Shown piece after piece: positions 252-10,285 of a DNA stretch of 10,285 nt. Position numbers and translations under genes: made by a program. The notes under the pieces are model-generated. The model did no database searches. It was not told the origin of the DNA and was given only the letters and a program-made list of their open reading frames with translations. The first letter of the stretch is position 1; the number at the start of each line of letters is the position of its first letter. The DNA is from Candidatus Hydrothermarchaeota archaeon (lineage in GTDB: Archaea > CAYFZR01): the NCBI GenBank assembly GCA_046760505.1, contig JBHIEG010000045.1, positions 1 to 10,285 of the forward strand, written 5' to 3'.

Positions 252-395
252 TCTTAAAACTAAACAAAAGATTATTGAAGAATATCTGTGAAGATACCCA
301 AAGGATTTGAAGAAAAGTTCAACCGACTAGAACCAGAGCAGAAAGAGAATTTAAAAATAAAACTGTCATCTGTCATCGCAGAAGAATTAAGATAA
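244..395 (+). pseudogene. Small, possibly ribbon-helix-helix-like gene split by a frameshift (or two tiny ORFs, 244-291 and GTG 288-395)
   Basis: ATG244 gives MNNLKTKQKIIEEYL*; the -1 frame reads RISVKIPKGFEEKFNRLEPEQKENLKIKLSSVIAEELR* to TAA 393-395. One extra A near 278-279 would fuse them. RISVKIP resembles an RHH beta strand. Confidence 0.35.
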
Positions 396-749
396 AAAAC
401 TGATTTTCTTGGGGGGATCTGGAGTATCTACTCTTAACTTCTTTATGACAGCTTTCTTCCCTCTTCCTCTCCTGAAACAGAAAACGAAGAAAGTCGGTAT
501 CCCAAACTTTTTCCATATCTCATACAATCTCTGCCATTGAAACTTGTCTTTTTTTCCGAAATAGAATGTGCTAAACTTCTTATGCCTTGATTTAACTTGT
601 AAGAGTTGGATATCATAGCTATTTCCCTTCGGTTTTATACATACAAGATCAGATTCCCCATAACTTGAACTGGCTCTGAAGACTAACCAATTTTCTTCCT
701 TTAATTGATTCCTGATCTTATCTTCACTATAATATCCTCGTTTAACCAT
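387..749 (-). CDS. hjc: Archaeal-type Holliday junction resolvase (Hjc family, PD-(D/E)xK nuclease)
   Basis: RG..SE.KI...L.EENWLVFRASSS.G.SDLV...LLQVKS follows the Hjc pattern (G-x3-E, FR-x-x-x-S, D-L-V, E/Q-V-K). ATG at 749 (MVKRG) fits family length better than the TTG at 797, which lies inside a structured RNA. Confidence 0.85.
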   Translation of the reverse strand: MVKRGYYSEDKIRNQLKEENWLVFRASSSYGESDLVCIKPKGNSYDIQLLQVKSRHKKFSTFYFGKKDKFQWQRLYEIWKKFGIPTFFVFCFRRGRGKKAVIKKLRVDTPDPPKKISFLS

Positions 750-755
750 ATAAAC

Positions 756-845
756 CAGACTAATGGACCGCAGTATTATGACGGGAAGGTATAGCAAAAC
801 CCGCCACTATCTCACGATAGCAGGATACTGCGTTTATCCAGTCTA
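756..845 (-). ncRNA. Structured RNA with canonical bulge-helix-bulge motif (candidate 71-nt archaeal intron, 833-763)
   Basis: Minus strand: UAGACU/AGUCUG outer helix, GGAU/GUCC 4-bp helix, AAA (835-833) and AUU (764-762) bulges, CGCAGUAU/AUACUGCG inner helix, enclosing CUAUC-GUGA-GAUAG (GNRA loop) and UGGCGGG/CCCGUCA. G-U pairs and the GNRA loop fix the strand. Confidence 0.75.
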
Positions 846-1505
846 ACCATAGAACCCTTTATCTAAAAATTTGTTTAATATATTCTTCATCTTTAGTCTG
901 AACACGTCAAGATCATCCTTCGAGCCAAATTCTTTTATTGCTCTACCCATTGCCAATGTACAGCCGAGCCAAATATTGAAAACCTCGTTAACATCGTTTG
1001 ATTTTAGCATTTCATAAACTTGCCACTTACTTTTTTTCTTTATCGGTATCTGAGCTAGCGGAGTGTCTATCCTCTTAATTTTTTCTATCACCCTGATTGT
1101 CGCCCCTGCTAGCGATAACATAAAATTCATTAACATACCGTTCTTAGCGGATTGTATCAAATCGTGTATCCTGTTTTCTGGTATTTGTAATTCTCTAGCC
1201 CAGTTTTTTAAAATATCTTTTTTCCTTTTCAAACTTGTTCCACAGTTTGGACAATTATCTTGAGTTTCTATGTCTATCTCTCCTTTACAGTTATCACACC
1301 TCGTTAAGAAATTTTTGACCTTGTTTGGGTTTATCTGCCTCCCGATTGAAATACATAATTTTCGGTTATAATGACCAGTCTTAGTTGATTTCTCTGGTAA
1401 TAATGATATGTAAATATAAGGGTCGTATAAAAGTAAAGTTCTATCCGAGCCCAACATAAACCAAATATCTTCCCTAAGTTTTTTGTATTTCGGCATTAAA
1501 ATCAT
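843..1505 (-). CDS. Hypothetical protein with zinc ribbon
   Basis: 220-aa ORF with CDNC...CPNC; ATGA overlap with the upstream gene at 1502-1505. Confidence 0.8.
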   Translation of the reverse strand: MILMPKYKKLREDIWFMLGSDRTLLLYDPYIYISLLPEKSTKTGHYNRKLCISIGRQINPNKVKNFLTRCDNCKGEIDIETQDNCPNCGTSLKRKKDILKNWARELQIPENRIHDLIQSAKNGMLMNFMLSLAGATIRVIEKIKRIDTPLAQIPIKKKSKWQVYEMLKSNDVNEVFNIWLGCTLAMGRAIKEFGSKDDLDVFRLKMKNILNKFLDKGFYG

Positions 1506-4885: not shown

Positions 4886-4908
4886 AACTAATAATAATTA
4901 TTAACTTA

Positions 4909-4923
4909 TTTATAAAGATTTCG
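4909..4923 (-). promoter_or_regulatory. Archaeal BRE-TATA promoter of the ATPase-MCM-hjc operon (probably leaderless mRNA)
   Basis: Minus strand CGAAATC-TTTATAAA ending 23 nt before ATG 4885, with no SD in between. Confidence 0.6.
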
Positions 4924-5036
4924 ATAATTGAAATATTGAAATAGGTGAAATAAATTGTAAATATGATAATTAAAATGAGGTTATTACTAGGAAAATTTTT
5001 TTGTGAAACAATGATTATTTCAAATATTTCAATTAT
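4924..5036. repeat. 20/21-bp inverted repeat flanking a 72-bp AT-rich spacer; candidate replication origin
   Basis: ATAATTGAAATATTGAAATA (4924-4943) is the reverse complement of TATTTCAAATATTTCAATTAT (5016-5036) apart from one gap; extra TGAAAT unit at 4946-4951; lies just upstream of the ATPase-MCM operon. Confidence 0.6.
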
Positions 5037-5081
5037 TCTTTATTTCTTATATAAAAAATTCTCTTTATATATATACGGGAC

Positions 5082-5118
5082 TTATCGTACTTAAAACTTA
5101 TTTCATTTATCGCACTTA
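5082..5118. repeat. 12-bp direct repeat TTATCGYACTTA
   Basis: TTATCGTACTTA 5082-5093 and TTATCGCACTTA 5107-5118, 11/12 identical, 25 bp apart. Confidence 0.5.
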
Positions 5119-5197
5119 TTTTTTCAGTAAACTTTATAAACTATTGCATCAAAATATTAAGAACCGAGCAAAAGGAATTGAAGATTGATCGAACGGT

Positions 5198-5358
5198 TTA
5201 TAAATCCCTTCTAGAAAGAATTTCTTCAAAACGATCAAGGTCCTCTTTAACTATTTCTTCACAATCCTCTAGCAACCCCCTCAGATTTTACTCTTGATAG
5301 TATTCGATTTAAGGACCGAATGCAACCGTATCAACAGGTCGGACCGTCTAACTTCCAT
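5198..5358 (-). pseudogene. Small helical hypothetical gene (about 53 aa) broken by a one-base frameshift
   Basis: ATG5358 gives MEVRRSDLLIRLHSVLKSNTIKSKI*; the adjacent frame reads NLRGLLEDCEEIVKEDLDRFEEILSRRDL*. One more A in the A4 run (5286-5289) fuses them. TTTAAATA box ends 25 nt upstream of the ATG. Confidence 0.4.
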
Positions 5359-8509: not shown

Positions 8510-9367
8510 TCACTTCCATCTTTCTAGAACTAGAGTTTTTGCCCTTTCTCTTAATTTTTGTCTATACTCCGGTGTTAATTTTTTGGGAACTCCTCTCATG
8601 GCACTAATCATCCTGTTTCTTATTAAGGGATTTCGCCACGCCTGTTCAACAGATTCTGAGATTTTATTTTTATGCTGAACACTCATATAGGGGCTTCTTT
8701 TAAGAGTCGATTCAAGTTTATAATGCATAACATTTGGAACGAATGGTTTTATGAGTTCGATGAACTTTTTTTCGTATCTTTTCGTTATTTTTAAGAGATG
8801 CGAGCTTTTGTCTAATCTTACTCTTATACCGAATTTTTTGAAGAAGAACTCTTTGAGCAAATCCAGATCGTCTAAAGAAAATCCATCAGTATGAAAAACA
8901 ACCTCGTTATAGTGAGAACCGTCATCACAAAGCCATATCGCTAGGCCAAGCCCATTTAAATATCCAAGCTCTGATTCTGGAACTCCTTTTTTATCATTTG
9001 GATACCAAATCTTTTTTAAATAAGTTAAGCTTTGACTTGCATTAGTGAATAAAAATCCTTGGAGGAAAATCTTTTCTGTGCCTCGAGGGAATTTTGATTT
9101 TATGTTATATTGATATATCTTAACTTTTAACCATCTTGACAATATTTTTCCTTTCCATTTGAGATACTCTATATTATCAGCATGCTCTTGATAATAGGCA
9201 TTCTTGTAATCTTTAGGGATATAAATACAACCATCACCAAGCATACACCCCACCATAACCTCTCTGAATTTGTTGTCTGAAAGCAAATCATCATTTGGTA
9301 TCCCTCTTCGTCCCCAAGTTTTAGTTTTATAATTTTGGGGCGTTAATTCAATTATCTTATTCTTCAT
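8510..9367 (-). CDS. Free-standing two-motif LAGLIDADG homing endonuclease with basic NUMOD3-like tail
   Basis: MVGCMLGDGCI and GLAIWLCDDGS motifs, YPNDKK.VP linker; tail HKNKISES...TPEYRQKLRE; own GGTGA SD at 9376-9372; no intein termini. Confidence 0.88.
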   Translation of the reverse strand: MKNKIIELTPQNYKTKTWGRRGIPNDDLLSDNKFREVMVGCMLGDGCIYIPKDYKNAYYQEHADNIEYLKWKGKILSRWLKVKIYQYNIKSKFPRGTEKIFLQGFLFTNASQSLTYLKKIWYPNDKKGVPESELGYLNGLGLAIWLCDDGSHYNEVVFHTDGFSLDDLDLLKEFFFKKFGIRVRLDKSSHLLKITKRYEKKFIELIKPFVPNVMHYKLESTLKRSPYMSVQHKNKISESVEQAWRNPLIRNRMISAMRGVPKKLTPEYRQKLRERAKTLVLERWK

Positions 9368-10254: not shown

Positions 10255-10285
10255 TCAAACACAACACCAAAATCTTTCTTCGTAA

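Follow-up and report, generated by a model that had tools for sequence, protein, structure and literature searches.

Introns of the BHB type are very rare in archaeal mRNA, and two kinds are named, the intron of cbf5 and one in a 5′ UTR (PMC7714728). The latter, 46 nt long, belongs to the HVO_1309 mRNA of Haloferax volcanii and is cut in vitro by EndA (PMC7714728). It is chromosomal, conserved among haloarchaea and situated in a 192-nt leader, was shown by circRNA-seq together with in vitro cleavage, and is excised by EndA as a circle, its removal being thought to aid expression. In Crenarchaeota, the protein-coding cbf5 pre-mRNA contains a BHB-like intron of 16-44 nt whose removal depends on EndA and is obligatory; it splits a catalytic-residue codon, and it has been gained and lost among relatives (PMC2738675). 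For protein genes of one archaeal virus, putative 12-bp inserts were proposed as introns (Peng et al., cited in PMC2738675), but for these no BHB has been shown, nor has splicing been demonstrated. Among the passages covered by our literature searches, we found no virus or plasmid transcript for which a BHB intron has been demonstrated.

Here we describe an archaeal intercistronic hairpin that, judged from its predicted fold, may be one of these rare mRNA introns, having the exact shape cut by the tRNA-splicing enzyme. It resembles the HVO_1309 intron in being a short BHB-bounded piece upstream of an mRNA start codon that is not needed for the reading frame, and excision by EndA as a circle and a benefit for expression are proposed likewise; it differs in that it is 71 nt long, lies between cistrons in the operon of a mobile element, is flanked by a direct repeat, is single-copy and is predicted from sequence. 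With the cbf5 intron it shares a dependence on EndA that is here predicted, whereas the family-typical frame at our locus is intact without splicing. Like the inserts in the archaeal virus, it is a short insert among the genes of a mobile genome.

The window, which is the whole stretch of DNA analysed, is a complete contig of 10,285 bp (C45; 35% G+C) from an archaeal bin of 2.17 Mb in 142 contigs, and it was found in four DNA runs of a single hydrothermal-vent study; a search for sequencing runs gave 7 in all, none of them recorded as RNA. All of its long frames are carried by the minus strand, and the gene content comprises a LAGLIDADG endonuclease, an XPB-like helicase, an unassigned P-loop protein, MCM, two proteins of 83 and 220 aa, and an Hjc-like protein of 120 aa. 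Judged from this content, the contig resembles a plasmid or virus-like replicon; it would be a mobile element with an MCM gene that was grouped with an archaeal bin, and its true host may differ from that bin. The operon is tightly packed, with junctions of 0 nt (P-loop/MCM), 9 nt (MCM/83-aa) and -4 nt (83-aa/220-aa), and the next junction, from the 220-aa to the Hjc-like gene, is exceptional within it at 93 nt, all of which is occupied by the hairpin. The frames at this junction are as follows.

843 to 1505, minus strand: 220-aa gene, zinc-ribbon-like, upstream of the Hjc-like gene (list of open reading frames); its TAG (845-843) lies within the 5′ arm of the hairpin
387 to 749, minus strand: Hjc-like nuclease gene, 120 aa (sub-threshold PF01870; family profile against 1gef)
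812 to 850, minus strand: short frame from AUG 850 in the unspliced sequence, 12 codons and a stop at 814-812 (translation)

The 220-aa protein gave a weak match to Zn_ribbon_NOB1, under the Pfam cut-off, and also matched phrog_4875, a family of unknown function.

In the minimum-free-energy fold of 865-735 on the minus strand, a strict hBHBh′ motif was observed at 845-756, composed of the following elements.

840 to 845, minus strand: 5′ strand of the outer helix h, pairing with 761-756 and extendable via G-U pairs to 848/753
756 to 761, minus strand: 3′ strand of the outer helix h (fold)
836 to 839, minus strand: 5′ strand GGAU of the 4-bp central helix H, pairing with GUCC at 768-765
833 to 835, minus strand: 5′ bulge AAA, with the predicted cut between 834 and 833 (fold)
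762 to 764, minus strand: 3′ bulge AUU, with the predicted cut between 763 and 762 (fold)
763 to 833, minus strand: candidate 71-nt intron, a three-way junction (fold)
832-825/776-769, minus strand: inner helix P1, 8 bp, part of the candidate intron
821-816/811-806, minus strand: P2 with a GUGA loop, part of the candidate intron
805-800/785-780, minus strand: P3 with a 14-nt loop, part of the candidate intron

The outer helix h has 6 pairs, or 9 when G-U pairs are counted, and the inner helix h′ has 8 Watson-Crick pairs. Both the fold and the scan described below place two 3-nt bulges on opposite strands with a 4-bp helix between them, which is the arrangement of an EndA substrate, and each bulge lies 3′ of its central-helix strand, as in the tRNA-Trp intron of the same genome. 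A BHB is cleaved after the second base of each bulge, and this rule fits the tRNA-Trp intron, which served as the control. When the excised 71 nt were folded alone, the energy was -25.4 kcal/mol (z -3.23) and none of 200 shuffles equalled it, while for the entire 131-nt region z was just -1.90 and 8 of 200 shuffles folded equally well.

A preliminary description of this DNA had already noted the three-way junction with the GUGA loop in the excised part, which our fold of the 71 nt reproduced, and had named an alternative register of 73 nt. That register exists; it is out of frame, giving early stops, and has an A-G mismatch adjoining a bulge, and its energy is -31.6 against -33.8 kcal/mol, i.e. 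2.2 kcal/mol worse. The 71-nt register was the only strict one found by the scan of the window and is also the best-paired.

In the ensemble, the pair U840-A764, which makes a 5-bp central helix, has a probability of 0.48 and exceeds U840-A761 of the canonical 4-bp form (0.33). This division between the two central helices favours a rival explanation that we consider a serious possibility and rank second: a palindromic or regulatory insert that never undergoes splicing, whose resemblance to a BHB arose by chance, with the Hjc-like protein translated from AUG 749. Such an insert could be the remnant of a small mobile repeat, a hairpin for RNA stability or processing, or a protein-binding site. 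On the other hand, the exact 3+3 nt, the 4-bp stagger and the topology of a tRNA intron together are one arrangement among many, and a strong structure in a 93-nt gap that lacks a Shine-Dalgarno-like run would impede translation from AUG 749 if it stayed in the transcript. Rfam 15 gave no match at 730-870 down to E<=10 and ARAGORN found 0 tRNA genes in the window, and a C/D-box, tRNA-like or other Rfam identity of the hairpin was rejected on these results.

How often such a motif occurs was determined by scanning both strands of the 2.17-Mb genome for BHB motifs with introns of 12-250 nt and helices of at least 4 pairs. Matches were scored as capped mini-hairpins, with the mirror topology, not expected to be a substrate of the enzyme, as the control. 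The scan recovered the tRNA-Trp intron at the boundaries given by ARAGORN (2002 to 1957 on contig C39; -14.2 kcal/mol), where Rfam confirmed the identity of the tRNA, and a second tRNA intron at -14.3 kcal/mol. The hairpin of the window shares its hBHBh′ geometry, bulge topology and cut rule with tRNA introns such as that of tRNA-Trp and is the stronger motif (-18.7 vs -14.2 kcal/mol), whereas the outer helix is the anticodon stem in tRNA-Trp and consists here of strands lying in intercistronic and repeat sequence.

With its -18.7 kcal/mol, the candidate tied for second to fourth place among 6471 loci. Four of the 6471 loci, the candidate counted, reached this energy and none of the 6452 mirror controls did so; the best controls had -17.7 kcal/mol (antisense of a true-topology match) and then -17.1. 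The three other loci at or beyond -18.7 kcal/mol are all within long uninterrupted frames or antisense to them and, by this position, are best read as chance. Chance therefore yields about 3 such motifs in 4.35 Mb of strand, a rate of about 0.014 per window, and the rate falls below this figure if a sense-strand intergenic site is demanded. Rarity of the motif by itself does not prove function, many windows having been screened. That equal-energy motifs arise by chance about three times in the genome also speaks for the never-spliced insert; should that explanation be right, the locus would be an ordinary inserted hairpin and a warning that a textbook-perfect BHB of -18.7 kcal/mol arises about three times by chance per 2-Mb genome.

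The hairpin is flanked by an imperfect 24-nt direct repeat, the copies of which are given below.

835 to 857, minus strand: direct repeat copy 1, with AUG 850 and the stop of the 220-aa gene (local alignment; repeat family D1)
733 to 756, minus strand: direct repeat copy 2, with AUG 749 (local alignment; repeat family D1)

The two copies are identical at 19 of 24 positions with 1 gap, and their local alignment score of 21 was reached by 9 of 2000 shuffles. The DNA between them (834 to 757) comprises the 71-nt piece together with a further 1 and 6 nt. AUG 850-848 follows AAAGGG and opens a frame that shares 8 nt with the end of the 220-aa gene, up to its TAG (845-843); merging the copies would, on the aligned sequence, restore an 8-nt stop/start overlap like that of relatives. 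AUG 850 lies inside the duplicated start region, and its presence therefore has a simpler origin than functional need: most simply, it would be a by-product of the insertion, a diverged copy of the real start region. The flanking repeat itself is compatible with any insertion event and to that extent fits the never-spliced element equally.

Comparison with hjc loci lacking the insert had been proposed in the preliminary description. We obtained four related Hjc-like loci from metagenome contigs, three of them with upstream sequence, and in all three of these the distance between the upstream stop and the start codon is 2, 4 or -4 nt, and neither an insert nor a hairpin is present. The best sense-strand BHB-like motif in the related loci had -5.0 kcal/mol (15.7 kb scanned). 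In one related element (L007:2289-6384), a DNA methylase gene with an intein and a LAGLIDADG insert, a RadA/Rad51 gene and a small wHTH gene are followed by the Hjc-like gene; this gene content indicates that the Hjc-like family moves on mobile DNA in the company of recombination genes. Among the contigs of the four DNA runs, which are a possible source of the assembly and are not independent of it, no intron-less DNA form was found at 733-857, and there were no other letters, indel or joint.

The hairpin is single-copy in its own 2.17-Mb genome and was absent from the same-genus genome, which argues against a never-spliced repeat element; no other copy was found in viral contigs (exact pattern of the intron core, 0 matches) or in the related loci. 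It does not qualify as a miniature inverted-repeat mobile element, since a flanking direct repeat is present but only a single copy. The family, class and phylum scopes of the bin comprise 2 genomes each, and the second genome, of the same genus, lacks the Hjc-like protein and the contig. As for the other proteins of the window, the 220-aa protein and MCM gave no match in viral contigs, and viral relatives of MCM are just about 24-27% identical. In the search for relatives of the element, protein P0009 gave no match in the genome contigs. Bypass of the gene-60 type between the repeat copies was considered and rejected, as landing on the second GGU leads to an immediate stop.

The start codon of the Hjc-like gene bears on how the hairpin is to be understood. 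A search with the single protein in genome contigs and viral contigs gave no match, a word-index protein search returned the protein itself only, and tblastn against phage records gave no match; an exhaustive HMMER search gave 34 relatives at E<=0.001. We aligned 23 of the 34, leaving out the long multi-domain and the weakest rows. The PF01870 score of the protein is 19.0 bits, under the Pfam gathering cut-off of 21.1; 18 of the 24 aligned family sequences match PF01870 at E<=0.01, and position 1 of the family profile aligns to residue 1 of the solved Hjc 1gef (E 2.1e-8). We use the name Hjc-like because the match to PF01870 is below the cut-off, yet family members and the profile match to 1gef agree with it. 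From the catalytic set E...D...E-x-K, the protein has E9, D34 and K53, the latter two being invariant in the 24 sequences, while the E of E-x-K is Q51 in this protein and in most relatives.

In most of the 23 aligned relatives, the N-terminus is M-(V/A/K)-K-(R/K)-G-Y and coincides with M749, and the protein predicted by the gene caller itself begins at 749. As most relatives and 1gef begin at this position, no N-terminal extension is needed, and from the alignment AUG 749 is taken as the family start. This start is what the never-spliced insert would use. Several elements of the preliminary description were borne out: AUG 850 follows AAAGGG, overlaps the end of the 220-aa gene and stops inside the structure; deleting 833 to 763 (71 nt) opens a 130-aa frame from AUG 850 in frame with the Hjc-like gene, deletion of 72 or 73 nt leading to early stops; and AUG 749 is preceded by no Shine-Dalgarno-like run. 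Its idea that Hjc needs the upstream AUG was not supported, in view of the starts at 749 in most relatives, the 1gef profile and the gene caller. The arithmetic of the in-frame cut is right, and the 1-in-3 prior of that outcome stands. As a whole, its interpretation found partial support: the strict BHB, the 71-nt register, the frame arithmetic and the presence of EndA and RtcB in the genome agree with it, and the need for the upstream AUG found no support.

In the strong version of that interpretation, which is nested within the explanation by splicing that we prefer, the Hjc-like protein is made mainly from AUG 850 after the 71-nt splice, as 130 aa with a 10-residue extension, so that splicing gates expression. 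AUG 850 keeps the ancestral coupled context, with the 8-nt overlap and AAAGGG before it, and AUG 749 is without a Shine-Dalgarno-like run, which keeps this model alive at low probability. The open frame results from the 71-nt cut only, and reduced EndA lowered HVO_1309 expression (PMC7714728). Against this stand the 1-in-3 prior, the repeat that accounts for AUG 850, the family profile that begins at residue 1 of solved Hjc, and the alignment, where only 2 of the 23 relatives have clearly longer N-termini, neither resembling the AUG 850 extension. We regard mainly upstream initiation as unlikely.

The lack of a Shine-Dalgarno-like run before AUG 749 would also fit a promoter within the insert, where ATAATA at 779-774 gives rise to a leaderless Hjc-like transcript and the hairpin ends the upstream transcript. 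ATAATA is centred about 27 nt before AUG 749, which is the same spacing as that of TTTATAAATA before the first gene of the operon (4885). Nevertheless, the TATA-like run, a putative promoter, is weak and such runs are common in a contig of 35% G+C, and a terminator scan, made by bacterial rules for an archaeal host, gave 0 sites, with no T-rich terminator-like site after the hairpin; the hairpin was on this basis rejected as terminator-like. This explanation, which is compatible with the never-spliced insert, seems the least probable of those considered here.

The explanation that we favour, and hold tentatively, is an inserted cassette that host EndA excises, with RtcB sealing the ends. A former stop/start overlap of the 220-aa and Hjc-like genes would have received a hairpin cassette of about 78-93 nt, an insertion duplicating the start region and giving the two copies of AUG-GUU-A at 850 and 749. 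If the operon is transcribed through the gap, the cassette would fold within the transcript into the strict hBHBh′ motif, host EndA would cut at 834|833 and 763|762, and RtcB would ligate the exons, with the 71-nt piece closed into a circle. Splicing would shorten the spacer between the stop of the 220-aa gene and AUG 749 from 93 to 22 nt and would remove the strong three-way junction. The native N-terminus would be M749, and AUG 850, in frame once spliced, could add 10 residues if it is the AUG chosen.

The enzymes for these steps are present in the genome of the bin. EndA is encoded by one short-form gene (PF01974, 118.5 bits; contig C24) adjoining the TrpRS gene, and RtcB was found with 603 bits on contig C3. 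EndA of the alpha4 and alpha′2 types does not cut non-canonical introns, according to the abstract of PMC5829648, and since these types spare such introns, the short-form enzyme would need a strict motif such as that of the window. A second match to RtcB occurs in two pieces within one 817-aa open frame (G000:C89:827-3040), and its split suggests an intein.

If the hairpin is spliced, mobile elements can exploit the tRNA-splicing machinery of the host, such introns can lie between cistrons and alter the usable start codon, and the flanking direct repeat is a rare trace of BHB intron gain. A more far-reaching proposal is that of a self-contained mobile BHB cassette that carries its own exon-side helix, duplicates its target on insertion into the overlap between the stop and start codons of two genes in an archaeal replicon, makes expression of the resolvase depend on the host tRNA-splicing enzyme and sets free a stable circular RNA of 71 nt that has a separate function; we consider this speculative and improbable.

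Several further motifs were encountered in the genome scan. True-topology motifs outnumber mirror motifs by 66 vs 44 at -12 kcal/mol or below and by 174 vs 119 at -10 kcal/mol or below, an excess larger than a few tRNA introns explain, yet of about two standard deviations only. An intergenic BHB on the minus strand (locus L013, G000:C1:106310-106362) has a perfect outer helix of 13 bp, an excised part of 52 nt and an energy of -15.7 kcal/mol; it gave no Rfam match and, by its predicted structure, could be a genuine non-tRNA EndA substrate of the host. Another motif (G000:C141:249-376, plus strand; -15.3 kcal/mol) lies across the point where two frames meet, and removal of 121 nt would join them in frame; it is probably due to chance, as the second frame has its own start.

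Within the window, a second BHB-like hairpin lies at 10007-9953 on the minus strand, where a gap of 84 nt precedes the 183-aa gene, with a 10-bp inner helix and a loop containing a UGAUGA run. It was rejected as a BHB, its outer helix having 3 pairs only and the fold favouring a single bulge. A free-standing LAGLIDADG_2 endonuclease gene is located at 8510-9367 (minus strand), between the 183-aa gene and the helicase gene. A long BHB around this gene was likewise rejected: the minus strand gave 9 candidates of 250-3000 nt vs 11 mirror controls, and the one long candidate spanning the gene would shift the frame.

The ends of the window and its longest gap showed features of their own. Numerous contigs from the four DNA runs join or break at 133-166, within 130-170 of the window, and 333-396 is matched by a separate 3.9-kb contig with 12 differences; from these sequences, both regions appear to be a repeat or variable end of the element. 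At the other end, one contig of 14,087 nt extends about 3.8 kb past position 10285. The P-loop gene and MCM are preceded by a gap of 880 nt, in which the region 4890-5210 contains dense inverted and direct repeats of TTATTTCA and TGAAATA-like units, which make it a candidate replication origin of the element.
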